14,122 nucleotides of DNA from Oligoflexales bacterium (GTDB taxonomy: Bacteria; Bdellovibrionota_B; Oligoflexia; Oligoflexales; RGVZ01). Shown here one piece after another: positions 1 through 12,801 of this stretch (position 1 is its first letter; every line of letters starts with the position of its first letter). The translations under genes were made by a program, and so were the position numbers. The notes below the pieces were generated by a model that was not told where the DNA came from, ran no database searches, and saw only the letters and a program-made list of their open reading frames with translations. Where the stretch lies: the NCBI GenBank assembly GCA_044236265.1, contig JBIIGV010000073.1:1-14122 (forward strand). Reading direction: 5' to 3'.

Positions 1-1776
1 TCGTCAGATCTAAAGACTGTCACAGCCGCTCCATCTGCCATTTTCACTGTCCATGTGTACTCAGGACGCTTCCCACTGAATGATGTGCGTGTGTCGTTTA
101 CCAATCAAAACGGATTGAGCGCCAAATGTGTCAGTAATGACCGCGGTCGCTGCGTACTTGAGGTTCAGGCCTCTCTTCCGGGAGAAGGGACGTTAACGGC
201 GCAAAAAACCGGATATCAGACGACCTCCACGACGTTAGCCGTAAAAGAAAATGACAACCATCGTTTAAACATGACACAGGGAAGTAGTCTTGATGCAAGA
301 ATCTCCCTGGCAAGTCCCTTTGAAACAAAGCCAGCAGCCGGATTTTACGTCAAGATTAGAAATCAAAATCGCAACGCCGTCACGTCAGACAGCGCGGGAT
401 TTGTGTCTATACCGGTAGACTCGAAGTTTCCTTTTGAAGTTGACATCACTCACGCGTCAACCGGTACAAGTGTGCGCCGCAAAGTCCAAGACGCAAAGGA
501 TCTCGACTTAAACGTCACGGTGTCCGATGGGTCGACCGAGGGTTGGACAAAGTTATTCCGCTACCCCATTCACCTAAGTCATGACGTGTCTAAAGAAAGT
601 GGTCTGCTTGACTTTGAACTCCTTGATAGCGCGCTTCAAAACAAGTTTAAAAATGAGATTTTGACGGAAAGCGTTCGAAGTCACGCAAACCTTTCCAGTA
701 ACGCTCTGGCCTTACTTCCAAATGTCAGAAAGGGCAATCAGGCTCTGGAACTTGGAATCATTGCCATAACCAGCAAGGGAAAGATTGCTGAATCAATTTA
801 CACAACACTGCCATTGTCTTCTGTTACAGAAGATCAGTGGCTTCGAGCCTACGACTCCGCTCTACGAAATCTCTACGCGAAGCTCCCGTGGCCAGGAACT
901 GTGGCTGCAGTAAAAAACAGAGAGCTAGATATTGCCATAAAAGGGGAGTTTATCGACAAATCTGACCGTATTTCGGTTGAAACACCCCACGGACCGATGT
1001 CAGCCAGTATCAAAAAAATCAGCCCAAAAGGCGCGCGCATTTCACTTGATGCTGCAAGCCACCTTACGGCTGAAGATCTATCCAAACTTATTGGCAATAA
1101 AGTTCAAAAAATTGTTCATGGAGCCTCTTCAATAGAAGACAATCTGACTAACGAATTAGGCACTCTAGTATCCATAAAGTCAGAGCACAAAGGTCGACGT
1201 CTTGCCAGAAAATATCTAGCTGAAAGTAATCCCGATGAAGCCATCAAAATTTTGACTGCCTCCCTTGATGAAAGCACGTCATCTCTTTCTGATCTTGAAT
1301 TTATCATCACGATTGAAAATCAGAGGGGGAAGTCGGATGGCATACTTCAGGCCCTGCAGAAAATGGCTGCGTTGGCTACCAAGTTGGGTAAAACCGATTT
1401 ACTTCCTTTAATAGAAACCAATATTCAGCTTGTACAAGTAGAAAATCTACCAGCCATTCAAGGCGACAGAAATATTGCAAATCGCTTTGCAGAAATCGAG
1501 CAGAATGCAAATGGATTGAAATCCAGACTGCCGAATACATTCACAAGCTCCCAGCAAGCAATTGCACTGTCCTATATTATTCTGACTGCTCAGCAAAAGG
1601 CGGCGGAATCAAACGACGACCTATTGAAACTAGCAGCAATGAGTGACGCCTGGAGTGATTTTGAGAAAAATCTCGGCCCAACGGAAGATCTCCCGCAGCA
1701 GGCTTGGCGAACATATGCCGGAAGACAAAAAGATCGCACGTCGATGGGATCACAAGACGATAATAGATCTCTTTAA
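1..1776 (+). CDS. Large hypothetical protein, 5'-truncated by the window edge; N-terminal beta-sandwich (carboxypeptidase-regulatory/PEGA-like) segments and helical, possibly TPR-like C-terminus
   Basis: Frame +1 has no stop from base 1 to TAA at 1774-1776, so the GTG at 55 is probably internal. Motifs 'SNDRGRC', 'LTAQKTGY' and 'TSDSAGFV' resemble transthyretin-like/PEGA-type repeats. The C-terminal third looks helical. Confidence 0.75.
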   Translation, partial: SSDLKTVTAAPSAIFTVHVYSGRFPLNDVRVSFTNQNGLSAKCVSNDRGRCVLEVQASLPGEGTLTAQKTGYQTTSTTLAVKENDNHRLNMTQGSSLDARISLASPFETKPAAGFYVKIRNQNRNAVTSDSAGFVSIPVDSKFPFEVDITHASTGTSVRRKVQDAKDLDLNVTVSDGSTEGWTKLFRYPIHLSHDVSKESGLLDFELLDSALQNKFKNEILTESVRSHANLSSNALALLPNVRKGNQALELGIIAITSKGKIAESIYTTLPLSSVTEDQWLRAYDSALRNLYAKLPWPGTVAAVKNRELDIAIKGEFIDKSDRISVETPHGPMSASIKKISPKGARISLDAASHLTAEDLSKLIGNKVQKIVHGASSIEDNLTNELGTLVSIKSEHKGRRLARKYLAESNPDEAIKILTASLDESTSSLSDLEFIITIENQRGKSDGILQALQKMAALATKLGKTDLLPLIETNIQLVQVENLPAIQGDRNIANRFAEIEQNANGLKSRLPNTFTSSQQAIALSYIILTAQQKAAESNDDLLKLAAMSDAWSDFEKNLGPTEDLPQQAWRTYAGRQKDRTSMGSQDDNRSL

Positions 1777-1798
1777 GACATACAGTTGAGGACAATTC

Positions 1799-2722
1799 AT
1801 GGCCGACTCTAACTCCATAAAGAATGCCTCGGGCGCAGAGGATTCAAAATCTAAAGGCAAATCAGGCCAGGCGATTGAAGAGTTCTTGCAGGCCCCAAAG
1901 AAGAAGAGAAAAAGTTACGTCATTCTTGCCGCCGGTGACGGCGTTGACGAAGACACGGTCGCCGCGATTCAGAAATTCATGAAGACCCAATACTCGAAAA
2001 TCAGTCTCGTAATCGCAAAAAATCCAGAAGAGGTTTTGCGATATTCAACGAGAAATATCATTTTGACGATTATTCACGACGAATTTGTGCCAAGGGCTGA
2101 GACGCTGGCTATTGTACGCAAACTAAAAGAGACAAAAACAGATGGTCCCATGCCCACCCTGTTCCTGACGACCAACGCCCCAGCTCTTGTAGATGACTAC
2201 CAGCGTGAACTACTTCCTTGGCATGAAGTTGATGAATACGTGCAACACGAGGATGTGCCGCGCCATGATATCTTCAGAAAAATAAAGTCAGGGATTGAAA
2301 CGCAGTTCCGCCGACGAGCTAAGAGATTTAAGGTCGACATGCCAATGCATTTTCAGGTGCTAGATACAGGTGATGTCAAATATGAAGGTCGCCTGATTGA
2401 TTTCAGTTTACATGGAGCGCTGATCTCCACCACAAGTGGTGTTCACAATTTTTCGACCCGCGACCAAATCATGGTCCATCTGCCCCTTTCGAAGTATGTA
2501 AAAGGTGAGGCAGATATCCTCAGGATATCCGCGCGAGTTCGCCGGGTGCTCATCTCGGGTGATCAGGCTGGGTTAAGCTGGGAGTATCTTAGCGATGATA
2601 AGTTGGCCGTTATGACAAAACTCCTATTTGCAATTGTGGACTCCTCATTGGCGAAAACCGCAAACGCAACCCGCGCAAAGCTATCGAAAAATCAGCCCGT
2701 CGGAATGAGTGAACCAACCTAA
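1799..2722 (+). CDS. PilZ-domain (c-di-GMP receptor) protein with N-terminal degenerate receiver-like domain
   Basis: 307-aa ORF with GAGG RBS. Both PilZ motifs are present: RxxxR (RRAKR) and DxSxxG (DFSLHG). The N-terminus has a receiver-like beta/alpha pattern (YVILAAGD, ILTIIHD, PTLFLT, VDEYV). Confidence 0.85.
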   Translation: MADSNSIKNASGAEDSKSKGKSGQAIEEFLQAPKKKRKSYVILAAGDGVDEDTVAAIQKFMKTQYSKISLVIAKNPEEVLRYSTRNIILTIIHDEFVPRAETLAIVRKLKETKTDGPMPTLFLTTNAPALVDDYQRELLPWHEVDEYVQHEDVPRHDIFRKIKSGIETQFRRRAKRFKVDMPMHFQVLDTGDVKYEGRLIDFSLHGALISTTSGVHNFSTRDQIMVHLPLSKYVKGEADILRISARVRRVLISGDQAGLSWEYLSDDKLAVMTKLLFAIVDSSLAKTANATRAKLSKNQPVGMSEPT

Positions 2723-2909
2723 ATACTTGAAAATAATCAATGCAAGCTCAGGACACCTGGTTCAGTCATAGCGCCAGGCCTTAAAAGGGTCATATTTTAT
2801 CAATATTATTAATTAGTTATAAATTTTATTTCAGCATCTTCTGATCACCTCCGATAACTCCCTTAACAGGTGTCCGGGCGGTTTGCTATCGCAGCAAGGG
2901 GGATAAAAG

Positions 2910-4013
2910 ATGTCTAGGTCAAATAAAGTTAAATGTCTTCGCCGGTCGATGGTGGCGTTGCTGAGCACAGCCGCACTGCTGACCACTAGCTGCGACATGG
3001 GAGACCGAAGCGCACTTCGCGTTGCTGGTGGCCAGTTCGATCTCCACCAGAAGTACCCAGGCACCCTCTATGTTGAAATGACAGGGACAGACTTTGCTAA
3101 AAAGCAATCTTCTATCAGAAACGTCGGCACAATTGTGGACATTGGCCTTCCGAATTCATATGCGCTGATTCTCAGTCTTGCAGACGCCTTCTTTGAAAGC
3201 GGCGGCAAGGCAACTCTTCCAGTATATAAGACAATTAACCTTAAGGTTTTCTTAAGCAATGGATCAAACGCTATCGACTTCCCTGCGGTCGCCATGGTCC
3301 AAAATGGTACCTTTGAGGACACTCAAAAAAGAAGTTCTTCCATGCTTGCAGTAGGAATTAAAGCAGAACCTACTGGGTCAGCTCGCAATGCCGAAGTTGA
3401 GGGATACGCAAAGAAAATATTTCTTGAAAGTCCGCTCGTGACAGAAAAAGGCCTCAATCTGAGAGATGCCAACACGAGCTTTATCATGTTCTCCATCCCG
3501 AAAACTGCACATCCTGCTCTCGCAAACATGGCTGTTCCTCAACTCATGACGGCTGAGGAGCGCCCAGAGCCAGCAGCGATCAAAGGTGCGATCGTGGTTG
3601 GCTTTGGTGAAAATATTGTAGGTGGATCTCGAGGTAAAGAGTTTGCTCTTGGCCCATCACTTCCGTCAGTTATGAAACGAAACTTTGCGCCGATTGACGC
3701 ATTGAATAAATCATCTGCAGAATACACTCCACTGCGTCAACTGATTGGTTCATCCAAAGACGTTGCGCAGCAAATTTGGGAATTCACAGGATCGGGCCTG
3801 TGTGGATCTCCGGACGGCAAGAACTACGACACTGGAGCAGCTGTTTATATCGACGGAAAATTTGCTGGATTTGGAGTCCGCTCCACAGCAAAAAGCTCAG
3901 GCTTCAAAGGAACGCTCGACTGCGGTAAGACCGATGCCAGTGACATGGTCACAATGGTCGTAAGCCCTAGTCAGCAGCAAATTGATGAATTCAAGGCCCG
4001 TGTTAAGAAGTAA
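2910..4013 (+). CDS. Lipoprotein with trypsin-like (S1) fold, probably catalytically inactive
   Basis: 367-aa ORF with a signal peptide ending in lipobox LTTSC. S1 landmarks occur in order: RVAGG, YP, GTIV, VVGFG, LC...YDTGAAVYIDGKFAG. The His, Asp and Ser positions appear substituted. Confidence 0.7.
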   Translation: MSRSNKVKCLRRSMVALLSTAALLTTSCDMGDRSALRVAGGQFDLHQKYPGTLYVEMTGTDFAKKQSSIRNVGTIVDIGLPNSYALILSLADAFFESGGKATLPVYKTINLKVFLSNGSNAIDFPAVAMVQNGTFEDTQKRSSSMLAVGIKAEPTGSARNAEVEGYAKKIFLESPLVTEKGLNLRDANTSFIMFSIPKTAHPALANMAVPQLMTAEERPEPAAIKGAIVVGFGENIVGGSRGKEFALGPSLPSVMKRNFAPIDALNKSSAEYTPLRQLIGSSKDVAQQIWEFTGSGLCGSPDGKNYDTGAAVYIDGKFAGFGVRSTAKSSGFKGTLDCGKTDASDMVTMVVSPSQQQIDEFKARVKK

Positions 4014-4036
4014 TCCACGAAGGAGAGGTTGGTCTC

Positions 4037-4288
4037 ATGAAACTGATTAAACAGCACAAAGTTGTTTTAGTGATCCTGATGGCATCTGCCCTTAGCAGTG
4101 GTTGCGCTTTACTCGGACCTCTCATGGGTATGTTAGGCGGTGGCGGCCTCGCACTTGATGAAGGCGAAGAGGCCATGTATATGGCTGCCCCTGACAGCGT
4201 TGCTCAAAAGCTTGGTTACCGCTGGGCAACTAGTGGCGAAACAGAAAAAGATGGTGGCTTTTTGTACGGAGCTTACAAGGCAAAGTAA
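4037..4288 (+). CDS. Small glycine-rich lipoprotein (83 aa)
   Basis: AAGGAGAGG RBS upstream. Basic N-terminus, hydrophobic stretch and lipobox LSSGC. Clearly similar to the next ORF. Confidence 0.75.
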   Translation: MKLIKQHKVVLVILMASALSSGCALLGPLMGMLGGGGLALDEGEEAMYMAAPDSVAQKLGYRWATSGETEKDGGFLYGAYKAK

Positions 4289-4319
4289 CGGTAAGGCTTT
4301 TATCTTGGAGATAAAAACT

Positions 4320-4613
4320 GTGAAAACAAACCTTTCAACCATCGTATTTCATGCAGTGCTCTTGGCGTCAGCCTTGATGTCAGGTTGTGGCATGCTTGGT
4401 GGCGGCGGAGGCTTAAGCGCTCTTGGAGACCTCAGTAAACTGATCCCTGGCGGCGCTGGACTAGCACTCTCAGAAAGCGAAAACGAGCTTTTCATGACCA
4501 ATCGTGAGATAAATCGCGTGACGCCTGACTATGAGCCTCGACCAAGTAACAGCGCCTTATCCGCACCAGACTCTGGTGGACTCTACGGCATCAGCTCATT
4601 GAGAGCTAGATAA
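4320..4613 (+). CDS. Small glycine-rich lipoprotein (97 aa), paralog of 4037-4288
   Basis: Start reassigned from 4140 to the in-frame GTG at 4320, which has GGAG at 4307-4310 and removes the overlap with the previous gene. Signal MKTNLSTIVFHAVLLASALMSGC ends in a lipobox. Confidence 0.75.
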   Translation: MKTNLSTIVFHAVLLASALMSGCGMLGGGGGLSALGDLSKLIPGGAGLALSESENELFMTNREINRVTPDYEPRPSNSALSAPDSGGLYGISSLRAR

Positions 4614-4649
4614 ACGGCTTCCTTGGTAAATGTTTGAATAGATGTTCTC

Positions 4650-4690
4650 AGCCCCGAGCCCCTTGTGAGCTCGGGGTTTCTGTATTATAT
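4650..4690 (+). terminator. GC-rich stem-loop, probable intrinsic terminator of the lipoprotein operon
   Basis: AGCCCCGAGC (4650-4659) pairs with GCTCGGGGTT (4669-4678) and is followed by a T-rich tract. Confidence 0.55.
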
Positions 4691-4691
4691 T
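4663..4691 (+). promoter_or_regulatory. Candidate sigma70-type promoter for ssrA
   Basis: TTGTGA (4663-4668), 17 bp, TATATT (4686-4691), ending 18 bp before the mature tmRNA 5' end. It overlaps the upstream hairpin. Confidence 0.35.
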
Positions 4692-4709
4692 GGAGCGTTT
4701 TCCCTCGAG

Positions 4710-5064
4710 GGGGCCGTCATGGTTTCGACATGCACGGTCGTCGAGTCAAAGCGCATGTCCGGGGTGGGGACGTCACCCGGTTATTAAAGGCGTACCAACG
4801 CTTATTCGGCAACGAATACGCACTCGCAGCTTAATTAAGCTGCCGTCGAACTAAAAGCGGCTACGGCTTTTGGGGATGGCGCAATCGATGTAGCTTGGTG
4901 TCGGGCTCTTCCGTCTGGAGAGTCAGGCATGACGACAATCAGGCTGCGGTCGGATGAGCCTGTCTATGGGCGCGTAAGGCAAGAGGACAAATCATAAGAC
5001 TAAACATGTAGTGCTTTTTCCGACGCGTGTATGGACGCGGGTTCGATTCCCGCCGGCTCCACCA
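4710..5064 (+). ncRNA. ssrA: tmRNA (transfer-messenger RNA), tag peptide (A)GNEYALAA
   Basis: 5' GGGGCCG pairs with 3' CGGCTCC-ACCA, giving an alanyl acceptor stem with the G3:U wobble. GGTTTCGAC 5' motif and T-arm GCGGGTTCGATTCCCGC are present. The tag frame GGC AAC GAA TAC GCA CTC GCA GCT TAA lies at 4808-4834. Length is 355 nt. Confidence 0.98.
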
Positions 5065-5077
5065 GTTTTATCAAACG

Positions 5078-5114
5078 AACCGCCGTCCGGATGATGGATG
5101 GTGGTTGTTTTTTT
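5078..5114 (+). terminator. Intrinsic terminator of ssrA
   Basis: AACCGCCGTCC pairs with GGATGGTGGTT (with G:U pairs) and is followed by GTTTTTTT. Confidence 0.8.
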
Positions 5115-5224
5115 CGAATGAATCAGGAAGTTTAGCAGCTTCAAACTTCCTAATTCTGCGGTTTGCTTGTTGGTTGGACGGGACGCGTTTCGGAGAGAAT
5201 CAAACCCGGATATTTCAAGCCGAC

Positions 5225-5527
5225 TCACCAGCCAAAACACCGAAACTCAGCGCGAGCAATAAAGCAGACTTCATTCCCATATGAACAATCCTCGTATTCA
5301 AATGGACCCACGCGCTCGGTATCGTGAACAGGGGCGCAGATAGCCTCCGCCTTCAAAATCGCTTCTTGTTCAGCCATCTCGAAGGATCTGGCAAAACAAT
5401 CCCAAGAAGCTTTACAAGAGTAACGCCCTTCACTTGTGAATCCTTCGGGCGTGGCGTTTGCGGTCGCCCCTAACAGTACTAGTCCCGCCAGTGCCAACGC
5501 AGTTAGCTTCCATTTTCTCGATTTCAT
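5225..5527 (-). CDS. Small secreted cysteine-rich hypothetical protein (100 aa)
   Basis: AAGGAG RBS, Sec signal peptide (MKSRKWKLTALALAGLVLLGATANA) and six Cys in the mature part. Divergent from the LysR gene. Confidence 0.75.
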   Translation of the reverse strand: MKSRKWKLTALALAGLVLLGATANATPEGFTSEGRYSCKASWDCFARSFEMAEQEAILKAEAICAPVHDTERVGPFEYEDCSYGNEVCFIARAEFRCFGW

Positions 5528-5611
5528 TTTTGTACTCCTTGTTCCTTAATTTTCAGCTGCAGCCATACAAAAGCTTTGGCAGCCGCGAAGTAACATTTAG
5601 ACAATTTAATT

Positions 5612-5628
5612 ATTGAACAAAATTCAAT
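5612..5628. promoter_or_regulatory. Candidate LysR binding site in the divergent promoter region
   Basis: Dyad ATTGAA-N5-TTCAAT containing T-N11-A, in the AT-rich spacer between the LysR gene and the divergent gene. Confidence 0.45.
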
Positions 5629-5650
5629 TTAAACTAATTATATATAACCT

Positions 5651-6517
5651 ATGGATATAAATAGAGTTCGTTATTTTTGTGTTGTGGCAAACTGTGGCTC
5701 CCTTATCAAAGCCTCGGAGATTTTACGAATTTCACAGCCTGCCCTATCGAAAGCGGTGCGCGTACTTGAAGAAGAAGTGGGTTTGCCGTTACTCGAAAGA
5801 GAAGGACGAGGACTTCGCCTCACCGAAGCGGGTAAGAAATTCCGAGCCAGCGCTGAGCCAATTTTGAACGAATGGCTAGCCATCCCCTCCCTGCTTAAGG
5901 GGCAGGCTCGAGAGACGATTCTTCGCATCGGATCATTTGAAGTTTTTACCACATATTTTGTTGGTCATCTCTTGAAACAAATCACCCTTCCGGAATTCGA
6001 GTTGCACGAGTTCACGCCTGGTCGCCTGGAAGACGCTATTTGTGATGGGCTTATTGATGTTGGTATTACCTATCATCCGATCTCGAGACGAAATGTTAAT
6101 TTCACAGAAGTCACAAAAATACGAATGGGTATTTTTGGAAATGAAGCTTTTCTAAAAATACCATTTAGCGAATTGCCCTTTGTCATACCCAATGATCTTG
6201 TTCAGGGGACTCCATCAAAAGTCATGGGTCTGGATGGTTGGCCGGATCACAAATTCCCCCGAAGGACCGCCTTCAAAGTGACCATGATGGAATCGGCTTT
6301 AGAGTTGTGTCGACGGGGCAAGGCAGTCGCTTATCTTCCCGAATTTGTCGTTGGTCTTCAAAACGAGGAAGTTAAGAATAAGTTTGAGTTAAAAGAGCTA
6401 GACTGCCCCATTCCCAAAAAAGACCGGCTACAAAGTGTTTTTATTGTTCAAGAAAGTTCTAAAGATGAGACCCCCTTCATAAGAGCCGTAGCGCGAGCCC
6501 TCCGCTCGCTAGCATAG
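5651..6517 (+). CDS. LysR-family transcriptional regulator
   Basis: 288 aa. N-terminal wHTH signature GSLIKASEILRISQPALSKAVRVLEEEVGLPLLEREGRGLRLTEAG, followed by a substrate-binding domain (LRIGS, IDVGI). Confidence 0.97.
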   Translation: MDINRVRYFCVVANCGSLIKASEILRISQPALSKAVRVLEEEVGLPLLEREGRGLRLTEAGKKFRASAEPILNEWLAIPSLLKGQARETILRIGSFEVFTTYFVGHLLKQITLPEFELHEFTPGRLEDAICDGLIDVGITYHPISRRNVNFTEVTKIRMGIFGNEAFLKIPFSELPFVIPNDLVQGTPSKVMGLDGWPDHKFPRRTAFKVTMMESALELCRRGKAVAYLPEFVVGLQNEEVKNKFELKELDCPIPKKDRLQSVFIVQESSKDETPFIRAVARALRSLA

Positions 6518-6543: not shown

Positions 6544-6613
6544 TAATTGGTGCCTCCCGACTGATTAACCGATATATTTGGAAAATGAATAATCAGTCGG
6601 ATAGCACCAATTA
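6544..6613 (+). repeat. 70-bp palindromic repeat, full copy 1 (24-bp L arm, 22-bp spacer, 24-bp R arm)
   Basis: TAATTGGTGCCTCCCGACTGATTA accgatatatttggaaaatgaa TAATCAGTCGGATAGCACCAATTA. Near-identical copies at 7435-7504 and 9811-9880. Confidence 0.95.
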
Positions 6614-6639
6614 ATGGCACCAATTAATTACACAAATTA
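6601..6639 (+). repeat. 13-bp tandem stutter (x3, degenerate) of the R-arm terminus
   Basis: ATAGCACCAATTA / ATGGCACCAATTA / ATTACACAAATTA. Confidence 0.75.
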
Positions 6640-6654
6640 ATTACGGAGATTGAA

Positions 6655-7428
6655 TTGGCCAAAATTTTTGTTAGTTTTGTCTTAGGAACACTTCTACACG
6701 GCTGTATATTTTTGTCTAAATCAGATTTGAAGCAAACCGCAGCTTCTGCTTGCAATTACGGTCAATCTAATACATGTCCACAAGGTGAGTTCTGTATTAA
6801 TGTCGATAAGGGCAAAACAGAATGTCGTAGCAATCTCAAAGAGGAACTGTTTGAGCTAGGATTTCCTTTTGAATCTATAAATCCAGTTGTGTGCGATCAA
6901 GGACCTTTATCTCCTCCCGGTAATAGCCATACTTGGCTAAATACCGCATTTGCTCTTGATCTCCAATCCGAAAGATCATCGTCTGAAGTACCAATTCTTT
7001 CAAGTGCAGAGGGACGAGTCATCGCGTTTAATGATTGCAATAACGAAAATGATCAGTGTGGACTTGGTTTTGGCAACGCGGTGAAAATTTTGACCGACAG
7101 TGGTCATCTTTTATTTTACGCGCATCTCAAGCGTACCCTCGTTAAAACTGGTGATCTAGTTAGAGTCGGTCAAAAAATTGGTATTGAGGGAACAACTGGA
7201 TGGACTGGTGAAGGAAACCGCCATTTGCATTTAAGTGTCCACTACGACTGGCGAACAGCGGGTTTTGAATACTGGAAGCAGGCGGGATATCTCCCGGCAT
7301 CGGTGCCGTTCAAAATGTTGATGTGCACTAATGGCTGTACAGCCGAGTGTAAAATGGCGGCAGTCGATGTTAGAACAATTGAATGTAAGCGGAATTCAAA
7401 AAGTGCTCCCGTTTTATGTACAAAGTAA
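6655..7428 (+). CDS. M23-family metallopeptidase, Cys-rich lipoprotein
   Basis: TTG start with GGAG RBS and lipobox LLHGC. M23 motifs: SH...ALD, GFGNAVKI, YAHL, VKTGDLVRVGQKIGIEGTTG, HLH. 13 Cys. Confidence 0.9.
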   Translation: MAKIFVSFVLGTLLHGCIFLSKSDLKQTAASACNYGQSNTCPQGEFCINVDKGKTECRSNLKEELFELGFPFESINPVVCDQGPLSPPGNSHTWLNTAFALDLQSERSSSEVPILSSAEGRVIAFNDCNNENDQCGLGFGNAVKILTDSGHLLFYAHLKRTLVKTGDLVRVGQKIGIEGTTGWTGEGNRHLHLSVHYDWRTAGFEYWKQAGYLPASVPFKMLMCTNGCTAECKMAAVDVRTIECKRNSKSAPVLCTK

Positions 7429-7434
7429 GCTGAT

Positions 7435-7504
7435 TAATTGGCGCCACCCGACTGATTAAGAAATAGATTTGGAAAATGAATGATCAGTCGGATGGCACAA
7501 ATTA
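7435..7504 (+). repeat. 70-bp palindromic repeat, full copy 2
   Basis: TAATTGGCGCCACCCGACTGATTA agaaatagatttggaaaatgaa TGATCAGTCGGATGGCACAAATTA. Begins 6 bp after the M23 stop codon. Confidence 0.95.
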
Positions 7505-7604
7505 AGGCTGATAAAATAGGCACTACTTAGATGAAGAATTGGATATGGAAGAAAATGGCTCCGCCCTAATAATTCATATCCATCTAGATACTTCGAGAAG
7601 CACA

Positions 7605-7901
7605 ATGACAAAGAAAACAACCAAAATCTTGCCTGGACCTGTCCATAGTTTACCAGCTGATCTGCTGAAGGCAATTAATGCAACGCCTGCGATCAAGAAG
7701 GTGTGGGGTGAACTGACACCCCTTGCGCAGAATGAGTGGATCTGCTGGGTCATATCGGCAAAAAAAGTAGAAACGCGGATTAAGCGAATTGAACGGGCGC
7801 AAGATGATTTGAAGGCTGGCAAAAAGCGACCCTGTTGCTGGCCCGGTTGCCCACACCGCAGGCCAAAATCTGCTAAGTGGTTTAACGACAAAACGGCGTG
7901 A
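7605..7901 (+). CDS. YdeI/OmpD-associated family protein
   Basis: Pattern LPADLLKAI...WGELTPLAQNEWICWVISAKKVETRIKRIERA...LKAGKKRPCCWPGCPH is typical of the family. The ATG at 7605 (GAGAAG upstream) is preferred to the TTG at 7539. Confidence 0.88.
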   Translation: MTKKTTKILPGPVHSLPADLLKAINATPAIKKVWGELTPLAQNEWICWVISAKKVETRIKRIERAQDDLKAGKKRPCCWPGCPHRRPKSAKWFNDKTA

Positions 7902-7956
7902 AAGGTTTAATTAATCAGCGCCAATGGAATAGACTCAATAAAAAACGAGGAGCTAA

Positions 7957-8322
7957 ATGCAGATAATTCGTGGCAAAGAGATTGTGCACAAGAATCCTAG
8001 CCAAACCAAAGACTATCCGTACGCCCTATCGTCAATCTTATTTGAAACAGATCAACTATTTGTTTCTAGTGAACTTTTAGGACCTGGAAAGAAGGCGTCT
8101 GCCCCCCATCGGCATCAACTTCAAGACGAGATAATCCTGGTGACCAAAGGCGAGCTACAAGTTTTTGAAGGAACGGAAAAAGCCACTCTCGCTGGTGGGG
8201 ACTACGTTTGCTTTGCGGCAAATTCGCAGAACGATCATTATATTGAAAATAATTCGGAAAAGGACGCCCAGTTTATTTTGATTAGAAGAAGTAAGCATCT
8301 CCATGGAGACGTTCGGTATTAA
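7957..8322 (+). CDS. Cupin-domain protein
   Basis: GAGGAG RBS. Cupin motifs PG...PHRHQLQDEIILVTKGEL and GDYVCFAANSQNDHYIEN. Confidence 0.9.
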   Translation: MQIIRGKEIVHKNPSQTKDYPYALSSILFETDQLFVSSELLGPGKKASAPHRHQLQDEIILVTKGELQVFEGTEKATLAGGDYVCFAANSQNDHYIENNSEKDAQFILIRRSKHLHGDVRY

Positions 8323-8326
8323 AAAA

Positions 8327-8416
8327 ATGGAAAACAGTCGGATGGTACCAATTAAAATTTTTTATGACGCATTTTGCGCACGAGATGGCGAAACGATGGC
8401 ATCGCTCTACGCCGAT
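8327..8416 (+). pseudogene. Truncated duplicate of the first 30 codons of the SnoaL-like gene at 9899-10375
   Basis: MENSRMVPIKIFYDAFCARDGETMASLYAD versus MKNSQMAPIKSFYDAFCARDGETMASLYAD. Similarity stops at 8416, 5 bp before an L arm of the repeat. Confidence 0.9.
8331..8354 (+). repeat. Lone R arm of the 70-bp repeat (inside the duplicated SnoaL 5' end)
   Basis: AAAACAGTCGGATGGTACCAATTA, 21/24 match to TAATCAGTCGGATGGCACCAATTA. Confidence 0.85.
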
Positions 8417-8421
8417 AAAGC

Positions 8422-8440
8422 TAATTGGTGCCACCCATTA
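8422..8440 (+). repeat. Lone L arm of the 70-bp repeat with a 5-bp internal deletion
   Basis: TAATTGGTGCCACCC followed by ATTA, i.e. the L arm lacking GACTG. Confidence 0.85.
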
Positions 8441-8542
8441 ATAACTGGCAAACAACGCCGACGTCGTTATGACTGCCAAGCATATCTCGATATACTGACA
8501 AGAGATACGACAACTCGGAGTGGGTAGATGGCGTCCTTATTT

Positions 8543-8923
8543 CTACTGCAAGTCGACGTGAGAATGACGTTTCAATGCATCCAGCGATACATAATCCAAA
8601 GCTTTGATATCCGTTGCCTGCAAATCTACTTTCGGCGCACGGTCAGCAACAAAAGCTTCCTGCCATCGCTGAGCGCAAAGACACCAGCGATCATTTGGTT
8701 TGAGTCCAGGGAAAGAATTCCTTGGACTCGGAGTGATGAGATCGTTGCCTTTTCGAAGGCTAAAATCTAAAAACTCTTGCGTAACAATTGCACAGATTGT
8801 GTGCCTGCCAAGATCCTGATCGTCAGTGCGACAAAAACCATCGCGAAAAAAACCGGTCTTAGGATCATCGCAGCAACTCTTTAAAGGCTGGTTTAAGACG
8901 TTTATTTTTAAAGGTTTATTCAC
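8543..8923 (-). CDS. DUF2237 family protein
   Basis: GTG start with GAGG RBS. Family signature NVLNQPL..C..DPKTGFFRDGFC.T...DLGRHTICA..T.EFL.FS...GNDL.TP.P...FPGLKP.DRWCLCA.RW. Confidence 0.95.
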   Translation of the reverse strand: MNKPLKINVLNQPLKSCCDDPKTGFFRDGFCRTDDQDLGRHTICAIVTQEFLDFSLRKGNDLITPSPRNSFPGLKPNDRWCLCAQRWQEAFVADRAPKVDLQATDIKALDYVSLDALKRHSHVDLQ

Positions 8924-9048
8924 CTAATACCTCAAATTAATTGTATGAATCGAACGGACTGTCTGTTCACACCATTTGTAGTACTTATTGAGAGTAAAAT
9001 AAAGTATGGTCGCGTCACAAAAACTACTTTGATAAAAGTCTCAAAACA

Positions 9049-9354
9049 TTGGGTATAACGAAATCACTTAAAGCTAAATTAGCACTCTTTTCCCCTGAAG
9101 ATCTTTCGAGGATGGTCAGGATGGGATGGGAGGACAGGACATCCTTTGAGGCCATCTATACTCAGTTCAATTTGACACCGAACGAGTTTGTCAAAGTCAT
9201 GCGAACTCAGCTCTCTCCTTCCGGGTTTAGGCTTTGGCGAAAGCGGATCTTTGAGAAAGGGCATCTTAAAAACGAAAAGAAGCGCGGGTACAAAATTTTA
9301 CGCTTCAAGTGTTCGAGTCAGTCAATCGACGGACAAATAAAGGGCAAGAAATAG
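9049..9354 (+). CDS. TIGR03643 / DUF2805 family protein
   Basis: Signature RMVRMGWEDRTSFEAIYTQFNL....VKVMRTQLSPSGFRLWRKRI. The TTG start is uncertain. Confidence 0.88.
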   Translation: MGITKSLKAKLALFSPEDLSRMVRMGWEDRTSFEAIYTQFNLTPNEFVKVMRTQLSPSGFRLWRKRIFEKGHLKNEKKRGYKILRFKCSSQSIDGQIKGKK

Positions 9355-9771
9355 TCCATCTGAAATAAAATGGTTTCTAGCGCATCGCGCTGCTTGAGAG
9401 GTCACGGCCCCGATTGGCTCATCAGACGAAGCTTCATAACCGTCGTCTCTTTTTGCTTCAATCACTGCACGATAAAAAGTTCGCCCGTTGACTTTCTTAG
9501 CCTTTGATTTATCGAGATTCGACTCAACAATCACATTGAAACCGGTAAGCTTTGCTCGTAGTTCCTCACCGACTGTAAAATATAGCGATGCGCCAGATTC
9601 ATTTTCGAGTTTACCCGAGCATTCCCACTTAGTGCCGCTATTGGTGGACAAAACTACGGACTGAGTTTCAGTATTTTCGCGAAAGAGGCAACAAAGGGAG
9701 CGCGAAATATTCGGAATTACCACACTAGTCTTAATTGCCAATAACACGTCATAGTCACGTCTTCTACACAT
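9322..9771 (-). CDS. Hypothetical protein, possibly degraded; both ends uncertain
   Basis: 149-aa ORF filling an otherwise empty gap, with a protein-like central part. No clear RBS, and its 3' end overlaps the convergent TIGR03643 gene by 33 bp. Confidence 0.4.
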   Translation of the reverse strand: MCRRRDYDVLLAIKTSVVIPNISRSLCCLFRENTETQSVVLSTNSGTKWECSGKLENESGASLYFTVGEELRAKLTGFNVIVESNLDKSKAKKVNGRTFYRAVIEAKRDDGYEASSDEPIGAVTSQAARCARNHFISDGLFLALYLSVD

Positions 9772-9796
9772 GAAGATCTTTCGCGTGAAACAGCGC

Positions 9797-9810
9797 TGAT
9801 TGGTGCCACT
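9797..9810 (+). repeat. 14-bp tandem stutter of the L-arm terminus
   Basis: TGATTGGTGCCACT directly before TAATTGGTGCCACC of copy 3. Confidence 0.8.
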
Positions 9811-9880
9811 TAATTGGTGCCACCCGACTGATTAAGCGATACATTTGGAAAATGAATAATCAGTCGGATGGCACCAATTA
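9811..9880 (+). repeat. 70-bp palindromic repeat, full copy 3 (closest to consensus)
   Basis: TAATTGGTGCCACCCGACTGATTA agcgatacatttggaaaatgaa TAATCAGTCGGATGGCACCAATTA. The arms are reverse complements at 23/24 positions. Confidence 0.95.
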
Positions 9881-9898
9881 CGAATCGTATTAAATAAA

Positions 9899-10375
9899 AT
9901 GAAAAACAGTCAGATGGCACCAATTAAAAGCTTTTATGACGCATTTTGCGCACGAGATGGCGAAACGATGGCCTCGCTCTACGCCGATGACGTTGAATTT
10001 CAAGACCCAGTATTTCCTCAACTTCGCGGCGAATATGCAAAATCCATGTGGCGCATGCTGTGTGAAAAGGGAGCCGACCTGGCTGTCACATACGAAATAA
10101 TTTCATCAGACGGTGACACACACAAAGTCCGTTGGGATGCTCGGTATACATTTACAGGAACAGGCCAACAAGTTCACAACAAGGTCCTGGCAACTTTAGT
10201 GATCAAAGATGGAAAGATTACAAAGCACACTGATCAATTCAGCTTCTGGCGATGGTCAAGGCAGGCATTGGGAGTTCCAGGACTTTTACTTGGATGGACG
10301 CCCGTGCTTCAGAAAAAAGTCCAAAATCGCGCCAGAAAATCTCTTGAAGCCTACATGGCGCAAAAAAAGAATTAG
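9899..10375 (+). CDS. SnoaL-like / NTF2-family protein
   Basis: 158 aa. FYDAFCARDGETMASLYADDVEFQDPVF...MWRML...WDARYTFTGTG..VHN.V......DGKI..H.D.FSFWRWSRQALG..GLLLGW is typical of this subfamily. Confidence 0.93.
   Translation: MKNSQMAPIKSFYDAFCARDGETMASLYADDVEFQDPVFPQLRGEYAKSMWRMLCEKGADLAVTYEIISSDGDTHKVRWDARYTFTGTGQQVHNKVLATLVIKDGKITKHTDQFSFWRWSRQALGVPGLLLGWTPVLQKKVQNRARKSLEAYMAQKKN
9903..9926 (+). repeat. Lone R arm within the first codons of the SnoaL-like gene
   Basis: AAAACAGTCAGATGGCACCAATTA (21/24), preceded by AAAATGA as in the repeat spacer. Confidence 0.85.
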
Positions 10376-10392
10376 TCGGATGGGACCAATTA
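10369..10392 (+). repeat. Lone R arm containing the SnoaL stop codon, at the convergent SnoaL/VanX junction
   Basis: GAATTAGTCGGATGGGACCAATTA (21/24), followed by a short AATTA stutter that contains the VanX stop on the minus strand. Confidence 0.85.
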
Positions 10393-10394
10393 AA

Positions 10395-11159
10395 TTACTG
10401 GACGGGTTCTGTAAAATAACGATCCGTAAATGGCTCTTCGGCGAGCGTGTAGTGCCACCATTCTTTTTCGTAGTTTTTAAAGCCTGCCTGCTCCATGACA
10501 GTCTTTAGTAACAATCGATGGGCACGCGACGCGGGCGTAATCTGATCGTCTGCTGTATAAGAGCGTTCATCAAAACAATCAAAGGATGTCCCCATATTGA
10601 GTGAGCCATCACGGTCATAGAGGCCCGGAACCGTAAAGCATGATCCTGAAGGCACAGACGCCAAAGGCTTCGTAACACCGGCAGGAGCAATCGTTAGATC
10701 AATGGTACTTCCCCGAGAGTGGCCCGACTTTTCTGCGATGTAGCCACGCTCAAATAGCTTTTCGATATTTTCCTTAGGATAGTAAAAGCGTTTTAGCCTT
10801 GGATTATCTCTGCCCTTAGCCCAAGCCATGAAAGCCGTCACCGCTTCCTGCGGTCTATAACAATCATATGCCTTTAGACTAAGGCCCATAGTCTTTAATA
10901 CGGCCTGCGCCTTGGCTAGACCGATCGCGGCCTGACTTGTGAGAAGGCACTTTGAAGCCTTATAGCCAGGGACCACTTTACCGGTAAAGTTTGCAGAACC
11001 TGCGTAGCGAGCATCGACCATGATGGTTGAGTCGATGTCTTTAATGTCGACAAAGATAGCCTTTTTATCCGATGATCGAGCGTCAGAGGCCTCCTCAGCA
11101 GTTGCCTCAAAGGAGAATCCACAGGCTATGCACATCATAAGACTAAAAATTTTTTGCAT
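10395..11159 (-). CDS. D-alanyl-D-alanine dipeptidase (M15 metallopeptidase, VanX/DdpX-like) with signal peptide
   Basis: Motifs RYA..NFTG..VPGY, YDCYRP, SGHSRGSTIDLT, MGTSFDCF and EWWHY. Start reassigned to the ATG at 11159 (GGGGG RBS, signal-peptide-like MQKIFSLMMCIACGFSFEATA). Confidence 0.93.
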   Translation of the reverse strand: MQKIFSLMMCIACGFSFEATAEEASDARSSDKKAIFVDIKDIDSTIMVDARYAGSANFTGKVVPGYKASKCLLTSQAAIGLAKAQAVLKTMGLSLKAYDCYRPQEAVTAFMAWAKGRDNPRLKRFYYPKENIEKLFERGYIAEKSGHSRGSTIDLTIAPAGVTKPLASVPSGSCFTVPGLYDRDGSLNMGTSFDCFDERSYTADDQITPASRAHRLLLKTVMEQAGFKNYEKEWWHYTLAEEPFTDRYFTEPVQ

Positions 11160-11217
11160 GTCAGCCCCCACCACGAGATCAAGACTTCTGAATGTATCAC
11201 AAATCGAGGCATGAAAC

Positions 11218-12024
11218 ATGTGCTACAGCGCACTCGTCAAACAAGACCTTAAATATCTAGGCCGCCGCTACGGAGCCTTGGCTGTTAAAGAGCAGGTGGA
11301 TGCTTATACGGAGGCTAGCACTAAGAACCCAAAAGATTTCCCACCACTCAAAGAAAGAATTTATCCTGGCTACTACGCGCCAGTGATCTTTAATCAACAC
11401 GGCAAGCGAGTGAGCGAGGTCATGCGTTACGGAGCATTTCCCCCGACCCACATCAAAGACCCAAGCAAGTACTCATCTTTTAATGCCAGACGAGATAACC
11501 TCACGAGCACCTTTTGGGGTAACGCCTTCATGAAGCATCACGGCGTGGTGGTGTTAAACGGATTTTACGAATGGGTGGCTGTAAAAGATCTTCTTACGGC
11601 TGGCGTGGTAAGACTAAGTGACATTGAAAAAGAATTTGCACGACAAGCCGAGACGAGGAAACAAAAAATTATTTCTGAAGGAAAAATATGGAAGCCCACT
11701 CCCACAGAAAAAAAGCCCGCCATTGACCGGCAAATCATCATTGAGTTCAAGCCAGAAGACGGCAACGATCTGATTGTACCCGTAATTTTTTCATATGCTC
11801 ACGAGGATCAAGATTTGGCGGGCAAAGCTGGCTTTGCAGTCATCACAGATGAACCCACCGCAGAAATCGAACAGGCCGGACACGACCGCTGTCCCATCAT
11901 CTTAGATGAACAAGACATCGACTCGTGGCTAAACCATGACGGCATGTCAGCTGAATTATTTCAAAGCTTTCTCGAGAAGAGGCGACGCGTCACATTTAGG
12001 CATGGACTAGCCATTGCCGCGTAG
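11218..12024 (+). CDS. SOS response-associated peptidase (SRAP, YedK/HMCES family abasic-site protecting protein)
   Basis: GAGG RBS. N-terminal Cys2 (MCYSA), FNARRDNL, FYEW and HDRCPIIL. Confidence 0.93.
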   Translation: MCYSALVKQDLKYLGRRYGALAVKEQVDAYTEASTKNPKDFPPLKERIYPGYYAPVIFNQHGKRVSEVMRYGAFPPTHIKDPSKYSSFNARRDNLTSTFWGNAFMKHHGVVVLNGFYEWVAVKDLLTAGVVRLSDIEKEFARQAETRKQKIISEGKIWKPTPTEKKPAIDRQIIIEFKPEDGNDLIVPVIFSYAHEDQDLAGKAGFAVITDEPTAEIEQAGHDRCPIILDEQDIDSWLNHDGMSAELFQSFLEKRRRVTFRHGLAIAA

Positions 12025-12054
12025 CTCAAAGTCTTCCCGCGATTTAGTCACCAA

Positions 12055-12801
12055 TTAGCGAGTTTTCAGGGTTCCTAGTCCGCCGTCGATACCAATCGTC
12101 TGACCTGTGACCCAACTAGAGGCATCCGATAGCAGCCAAAGCATGGCTTCGACAACATCCTCTGGCTTTCCAAGTCTGCCGATCGGGTGCATGGACTCTG
12201 AGGCCTTACGAGATGGCTCACTGGCAAATAATCGCGAGGTGAGGGGAGTCTCCGTGAGTCCAGGAGAAATACAGTTAACCCTGATTTTGCTGCGAGCATA
12301 AGTCGCAGCAGCCGATACCGTAAGACCCATGACCGCACCCTTGGCTGCGGCAATGGCTTCATGGTTTTGTAAGCCAATTTGCGCCGCCGCAGAAGCCACC
12401 AGAATAATGCTTCCTCCCTGGTCCATCATGGCCTTGCCGGCAGCACGCGTTAATCCAAAAGCACTGGTTGCGTTAGCCGCCATGGTGGCTTCAAATTCTT
12501 TTTGTGTGGTCGCATGGGCCGATTTTAAAATCAAAGATCCCGTACAGCAGACCGCCCCGTTGATGGGGGCCACGGCCACTGCTGCATTCACAGCGTTTTC
12601 ATAACTTTCAAAATCAGCGCCGTCGATGACGGCCCCGGGAGCACCCAGCTCAGCCATAAGTCCATTCAGTTTTCCCTCATCTCGCGCCGCCAGAAAAACC
12701 TTCGCACCGTGACCCACAAGTCTTTTTGCCAGCAGGGAACCAATGCCTCCGGTGGCACCAGAAATAAAAAAATGCTTCCCACTTAAGCTTTCGTAAATCA
12801 T
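12055..12801 (-). CDS. Short-chain dehydrogenase/reductase (SDR)
   Basis: SGATGGIG cofactor motif, IRVNCISPGLTETPL, HPIGRLGKPEDV and SSWVTGQTIGIDGG. The YxxxK position reads HEAIAAAK. Confidence 0.95.
   Translation of the reverse strand: MIYESLSGKHFFISGATGGIGSLLAKRLVGHGAKVFLAARDEGKLNGLMAELGAPGAVIDGADFESYENAVNAAVAVAPINGAVCCTGSLILKSAHATTQKEFEATMAANATSAFGLTRAAGKAMMDQGGSIILVASAAAQIGLQNHEAIAAAKGAVMGLTVSAAATYARSKIRVNCISPGLTETPLTSRLFASEPSRKASESMHPIGRLGKPEDVVEAMLWLLSDASSWVTGQTIGIDGGLGTLKTR

Follow-up and report, generated by a model that had tools for sequence, protein, structure and literature searches.

Dispersed terminal inverted repeats of a Y1 transposase family as putative sites of gene exchange behind the tmRNA gene of an Oligoflexales bacterium

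Integrons and clusters of attC sites lacking integrases (CALINs) are characterized by same-orientation repeats between small accessory genes and by the presence or absence of whole modules. Here, we analyzed a 14,122-nt stretch of DNA from an Oligoflexales bacterium (assembly GCA_044236265.1, contig JBIIGV010000073.1; hereafter the window), which likewise has same-orientation repeats, small accessory genes and variable modules downstream of its transfer-messenger RNA (tmRNA) gene. Its 70-bp repeat units and single 24-bp arms had been taken, in a sequence-only reading, for a possible gene-capturing array of recombination sites. The window differs from integrons and CALINs in that it has no integron integrase (IntI), attI or attC cores, and in that its sites are dispersed, two-armed and cut into open reading frames (ORFs). 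It is the entire 14-kb contig of a 3.25-Mb genome (G000, 89% complete) found in lake metagenomes.

Another related system is the TIRtron, in which a Y1 transposase gene, encoding TIRYT, is flanked by inverted repeats that often overlap its 3' end; such terminal inverted repeats (TIRs) occur as singles, dimers and clusters, and most, not all, of them contain GGGGWSAS (Di Nocera, De Gregorio, Rocco 2013, PMC3733652). TIRYT corresponds to TnpA-Y1 subclass 2.1 (Quentin et al. 2018, PMC6006769), the second-largest Y1 subclass, present in 14.9% of strains (PMC6006769), and to group 1 of the RAYTs (Bertels et al. 2017, PMC5581495), the equivalence of the latter to subclass 2.1 being given in bioRxiv 10.1101/2020.03.09.984088. 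Enzymes of the same subclass, TnpA-REP, are encoded next to prochlorosin genes and were proposed to expand and diversify accessory genes; no inverted repeats were found there and the authors later withdrew causality (bioRxiv 10.1101/2020.03.09.984088). In contrast to that case, the junctions studied here are marked by dispersed TIRs and the enzyme gene is unlinked. The repeat family is thus already known, and the swapping of genes at TIRs is the new part: gene gain, loss or cargo at TIRs is not described in the available sections of PMC3733652, and the literature searched, which did not cover subscription papers, contained no report of gene capture or swapping at them.

By sequence comparison, the 70-bp units are shown to be back-to-back pairs (dimers) of the TIR of a TIRYT-type Y1 (HUH) enzyme. 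The window arm differs at only 3-4 of 24 positions from the ends of the Y1 genes of two congeners (G001 and G006) and has a 15-nt core in common with the Y1 ends of a third (G003); it is the former match that places the unit in the TIRtron/TIRYT family. Close Y1 homologues (E <= 1e-35) were identified in 7 of 13 genus genomes, and the search for a RAYT with the same arms that had been proposed was rewarded in that related inverted arms flank Y1 genes in congeners: at the 10 loci inspected in these seven genomes, arms were present on both sides in seven and on one side in three, as counted within the 160 nt shown. The only Y1_Tnp gene of G000 (54.6 bits, cut-off 23) encodes a 232-aa protein and has its 3' end inside an arm. 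HVH and Tyr are invariant across seven aligned genus proteins, so that both HUH and the catalytic Tyr are present; the score against NCBIfam REP_Tyr_transpos (70.5 bits) is below the cut-off of 80, and a PDB sequence search with the protein gave nothing at E <= 0.001. Like subclass 2.1 enzymes (PMC6006769, PMC5581495), the resident Y1 is long, with a conserved C-terminal extension of ~90 aa, and has no flanking REP hairpins; unlike them, its C-terminal part has no Pfam match to a helix-turn-helix (HTH), and it is a candidate member by features, not by phylogeny. Of the 71 arms located outside the window, 28 have GGGGWSAS without mismatch; the nine inside it all deviate from the motif (2-4 mismatches), the window's variant core being also that of the G003 Y1 ends; in this the window subtype differs from the described TIRs, and it is not the arm of the resident enzyme. 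A separate observation concerns an empty dimer in G000 (C225:15363-15423) located one gene downstream of SCO1/SenC; G001 and G006 carry a full transposase element directly after SCO1 (L027/L028).

The arm is not confined to the window, as had been supposed from its local clustering, and as in TIRtrons (PMC3733652) it is Y1-associated, of moderate copy number and found as singles, dimers and clusters. With up to 5 mismatches allowed, 24 copies were found on nine contigs of G000. A profile search detected 41 arms of >=15 bits versus none in the reversed genome, and its iteration detected 80 arms of >=20 bits at 51 sites on 36 contigs (top control score 19.5), belonging to three subtypes (38, 21 and 21 arms). 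Most close arm pairs (22/28) face outward, as in the window, and a tip echo accompanies 11 of the 80 arms. Sites are clustered: 16 of 51 have a neighbour within 3 kb, whereas random placement gave 4.0 on average and never more than 13 in 2000. The clustering is weaker when the window is left out (11/46 versus 3.3, maximum again 13). Beyond this genome, a close variant of the arm is present in 5 of 12 genus genomes and in none of 47 other relatives searched. Named records with a related arm include metagenome-assembled genomes of Oligoflexales; among 35 loci, five matches labelled Desulfobacterota/Deltaproteobacteria (about 15 bits) and two labelled Puia were set aside. Two metagenome pattern scans, which may leave out records close to this genome, gave no match. 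For 31 of 49 arm tips, a stop codon is located no more than 15 nt away, a count that omits 3 of 52 3'-facing tips >300 nt from any gene; this proximity gave p of about 2e-8 per position and 0.05-0.31 per gap and, because the result depends on the null model, it was dropped as support for outward deletion. Another dimer subtype, with a common 29-nt spacer, is dispersed on contigs C64, C67, C108, C143, C199 and C207 and often adjoins secreted orphan genes.

Comparison with congeners shows genes gained, lost and truncated at arms, as judged from gene order. On contig C1, a gene for a 151-aa orphan lies between arms; G012 and G002 have no orphan and no arm between the adjacent flanks, G003 has another gene at this site, and G011 and G009 gave no match. 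On C107, pyrF and ggt, neighbours in G011 and G002, are separated in G000 by two additional genes, of which one lies between arms. Relative to these congeners, the orphan genes of C1 and C107 are gains by synteny. At locus L095 a dimer takes the place of ogt, and because ogt follows icmF in all seven congeners that possess ogt, this dimer marks the loss of an ancestral gene. The end of synteny is 0-11 nt away from an arm tip in six comparisons (L071/L092, L082/L047, L088/L100, L070/L100, L083/L095 and L087/L072/L102); whole genes are present or absent at these six breakpoints, and residues read from the arm replace the native C-terminus in L082 and L100. Further comparisons yielded one more break, 3 nt from a tip, the others being contig ends or indels. 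At another locus (L093 917-2578), an arm is part of a 163-bp duplication, and this is followed by a Gp49/HTH toxin-antitoxin-like pair, which L078 does not have; the duplication resembles the 103-bp one of the window.

In the window, that direct repeat of about 103 bp brackets a 1,572-bp block (8417-9988) that opens with a left arm and closes with a dimer (Table 1). The block appears to be absent in other strains, to judge from the starts of three of the six proteins in the SnoaL cluster. Two of these (P0001 and P0123) start with the peptide of repeat copy 1 and run into a whole SnoaL, and the third, P0125, shows the residue typical of copy 1. A start of the copy-2 type is found in the window protein and in P0122; P0124 is shortened and uninformative on this point. 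We read the two forms as empty and filled alleles. In P0123 the arm-encoded end is duplicated in tandem. One contig of run X2 links position 9931 to 8360, which corresponds to the reciprocal junction, and a minor contig of run X4 matches from 7508 on and is preceded by a different TIR-like 30-mer. The genes between the arms are not syntenic in relatives; the region from the tmRNA to the core SDR gene is different in every congener examined, with conserved blocks on either side. The window is likely to represent one arm cluster within a variable region behind the tmRNA, in which at least one block (8417-9988) would vary among strains.

Misassembly of the window was rejected, because contigs of several runs span both block junctions (8400-8430 and 9880-9930). 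The arms, coordinates and 22-nt spacer reported for the three full copies were borne out, and these copies are 87-100% alike. The lone arms also exist: three are right arms on the plus strand (8331, 9903 and 10369), and the fourth (8422) is really a left arm on the minus strand with a 5-nt deletion. No arm reaches scoring level in positions 1-6500, as had been observed. In a genome search that allowed the arm up to 5 mismatches, the 22-nt spacer and the entire 70-mer were restricted to the window, and every right arm of the window keeps part of the same spacer; on this evidence the copies are shown to be local descendants of one dimer that arose from one another. The uniform polarity noted earlier is thus real and needs no array to account for it: either local copying or a preference for the lagging strand, such as that of IS200/IS605 (PMC6006769), would be expected to produce it. 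The letter by which left and right arms (CACCCG versus CGGATG) had been told apart does not hold as an asymmetry of function, since G is found in 21 of 24 same-subtype arms elsewhere (and at 8342 in run X4), which makes the right-arm form a local variant. Nor do all copies lie at gene boundaries: the SnoaL ORF has its first codons within the arm at 9903 and takes its stop codon from the one at 10369, and 8416-8441 fuses two gene fragments. The 70-bp copies are predicted to fold as hairpins (z -4 to -12) with mismatches and no bulge; single arms form none (0 to -0.7 kcal/mol, z near 0).

We favor, at a probability of roughly 0.6, the reading that the arms are putative cut-and-join sites of a TIRYT enzyme that is encoded elsewhere and acts in trans. 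By the general chemistry of HUH enzymes, it would nick arms in single-stranded DNA and join the repeat ends to nearby DNA, and new ends would settle near existing arms to give clusters of one orientation. A segment bounded by arms (left arm, cargo, right arm) has the anatomy of left arm, transposase and right arm, and it might insert with a staggered duplication of ~100 bp or as a circle. Empty dimers and cargo segments would both be moved and tips duplicated, and outward joining would remove neighbours up to the stop codon of a needed gene, a deletion that would be tolerated because the arm has stops in all frames. More tentatively, and at rather less than even odds, TIRYT and its dispersed end-repeats may constitute an undescribed gene-capture system, in which one unlinked HUH enzyme moves arm-bounded cargo among congeners and stacks it at arms, so that arrays resembling those of integrons would arise with no integrase. 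In that case the SnoaL unit might be a long-lived cassette: its start and stop are of arm sequence, and a 68%-identical homologue (P0002) is the only one among 119 other SnoaL homologues with arm-like peptides at both ends.

Several observations weigh against an enzyme acting in trans. No tested activity of a TIRYT was found in the literature surveyed. Between the window arm and the arm belonging to the resident Y1 gene there are 10 mismatches in 24 bases, and an insertion sequence (IS) interrupts the upstream arm of that gene, for which reasons the cognate enzyme may be missing from the 89%-complete assembly; in addition, G004, G005 and G008 carry arms and have no Y1 match. The empty allele is deduced from protein starts and not from DNA, the joint in run X2, possibly a misjoin, is a single contig of depth 4 over a 41-nt repeat, and no arm-to-arm skip was seen among the contigs of seven runs. 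Synteny breaks also occur away from arms, and at two of the four loci of G000 that were compared for empty sites (C130 and C207) the flanks were not syntenic, so that these were uninformative. LysR and SRAP, which lie outside the arms, are as patchy as the genes between them. Homologues of the window genes mostly have no arms (SnoaL 1/7 with arms, M23 0/1, cupin 0/2, DUF2237/2805 0/3, dipeptidase 0/5 loci), the stop-codon proximity was non-significant per gap, and the 103-bp repeat by itself permits RecA-type loss of the block. The last three points also suit the view that the arms are passive passengers: TIR dimers, spreading as miniature elements without cargo, would accumulate behind the tmRNA, where RecA-dependent replacement and hairpin slippage swap genes, the arms giving short homology only. 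That Fic (G011) and SnoaL (G004) occur without arms in the same ever-differing region, and that a direct repeat of this length around the block suffices for homologous recombination, agree with it. We nevertheless consider it unlikely, as the sequence beyond the breaks, which are 0-11 nt from tips, is unrelated, arm-bracketed gains are found in core neighbourhoods too (dnaJ-type/NUDIX and pyrF/ggt), and sites are clustered beyond the random expectation.

A role of the arms as mere targets, with an IS3-family element that inserts into them driving the rearrangements, is much less probable. All five intact left ends of this IS in the genome lie inside an arm (one of them degenerate) at the same position, the C1 arm next to the gained gene is directly adjoined by a decayed fragment of the IS, the half arm at 9799-9809 stops at the IS insertion position, and targeting of REPs by IS3-family elements is known (PMC1525189); however, the window contains no IS sequence, and most congener breaks are at the outer tip of an intact arm with no IS remnant seen. 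The element itself (orfA start VPRPEKYRKYSNEF) was observed in arms on C88 (the upstream arm of the Y1 gene), C9, C16, C207 and C186, as a fragment on C1 and also at L094 4482-4505, a parallel to IS1397 and ISKpn1, which target REPs (PMC1525189). We give very little credence to an ordered integron-like cassette array in which a tyrosine recombinase reads the arm as an 11-6-11 dyad site. What speaks for it is the uniform polarity in the window, the direct-repeat arms around SnoaL and OmdA-cupin, and the symmetry of the arm, partly dyadic about a 6-bp core and fully palindromic in G002. It is largely refuted by the missing IntI and attC cores and by the tie of the arms to Y1: the integrase search gave nothing over the TIGR02249 cut-off in 13 genomes, G000 included, the three dimers have no RYYYAAC/GTTRRRY cores (as stated in the sequence-only reading) and no bulged bases in their arms, and the arms, besides being dispersed and truncating genes, flank Y1 genes and vary together with them. 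PF00589 matched a single protein (L002 1162-2082, contig C69), which is remotely Xer-like and scores far under the XerC/D cut-offs. This only match to the tyrosine recombinase family in the genome has, by eye, neither the catalytic Tyr nor the His, and no typical XerC/D was found in the assembly. What survives of the proposed array is that accessory genes are gained and lost at arms, here and elsewhere; its novelty and its order do not. An ordinary REPIN or an IS630-type miniature inverted-repeat transposable element seems scarcely credible, although the doublet is inverted, intergenic and mostly near gene 3' ends and the window copies read TA...TA. The last base of the arm is variable (A in 27 and T in 43 of 76 profile sequences), and the arms are tied to Y1 genes; no search aimed at an IS630 transposase was made. 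The family shares with REP/REPIN-RAYT systems (in part after PMC3733652) non-autonomous inverted doublets, a single-copy Y1 enzyme and IS3-family targeting; it differs in that single arms are not hairpins and no GTAG, GGAG or CGTC tag is present, one GTAG being found 6 nt outside one dimer only.

Table 1. Repeat elements and genes of the window
Feature	Position	Strand	Remarks
tmRNA	4710..5064	+	closes conserved PilZ-h367-tmRNA block; left border of variable region
TIR dimer 1	6544..6613	.	outward-facing arms, 22-nt spacer
Tandem echo of right arm's outer half	6615..6626	+	
M23 peptidase gene	6655..7428	+	between dimers 1 and 2; in 1/20 other family genomes (34% identity)
TIR dimer 2	7435..7504	.	
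OmdA/YdeI-domain gene	7539..7901	+	likely ATG 7605; in 0/20 other family genomes
Cupin gene	7957..8322	+	in 2/20 other family genomes
Direct repeat copy 1	8314..8416	+	cupin end, right arm and the 62 nt of SnoaL that follow it
Right arm	8331..8354	+	
Left arm with 5-nt internal deletion	8422..8440	-	left end of polymorphic block; assigned from sequence
Fic gene 3' remnant	8441..8527	+	starts at inner end of arm; about 90% nt identity to whole genes of G002, G011
DUF2237 (-) and DUF2805 (+) pair	8543..9354	.	
149-aa gene	9322..9771	-	no family match
Echo of left arm's outer half	9799..9809	-	
TIR dimer 3	9811..9880	.	right end of polymorphic block
Direct repeat copy 2	9886..9988	+	contains right arm 9903..9926
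SnoaL-like gene	9899..10375	+	first codons and stop codon within right arms
Right arm	9903..9926	+	
Right arm	10369..10392	+	
D-Ala-D-Ala dipeptidase gene	10395..11219	-	stop 2 nt from tip of arm 10369..10392; in 4/20 other family genomes
Probable right arm with 7-nt deletion	12042..12057	+	overlaps stop of core SDR gene; under profile threshold

The genes around and between the arms are listed in Table 1. The DUF2237-DUF2805 pair has 91-94% nucleotide identity to G004, G005 (part) and G006, far above the 68-72% or so of core genes, and is therefore likely to have been transferred recently. In these three congeners (L050, L051 and L052), short tandem repeats of another family (about 23 nt; core AAAACTAAACGTCGTGGA) are present 3' of DUF2237. 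SnoaL homologues occur in 7 of 20 other family genomes, in differing neighbourhoods. A 74-codon chimeric ORF (8303-8527) joins in frame the cupin end, a right arm, the SnoaL start, a left arm and the Fic 3' remnant. Scans for promoters and terminators were no better than shuffles (7 versus 6.8 and 5 versus 4.4), and the Rfam check suggested earlier returned the tmRNA only, plus chance miRNA matches far under gathering scores. As for an element integrated at the tmRNA, neither an integrase in the window nor a second tmRNA 3' end in G000 was found. In G002, a duplicated tmRNA 3' end (L041 148-178 and 4391-4742) is the mark of a 4.2-kb integrated island.

For studies of what TIRYT and RAYT group 1 do for their hosts, this locus offers a 24-bp site that is well defined, gains and losses that are polarised, and a 1.57-kb block that we read as filled in some strains of one species and empty in others. 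Should the enzyme play no part, the arms would simply be repeats of an ordinary kind within a variable island. Should it be responsible, TIRYT would represent a second, integrase-free route by which bacteria may build and prune arrays of accessory genes.

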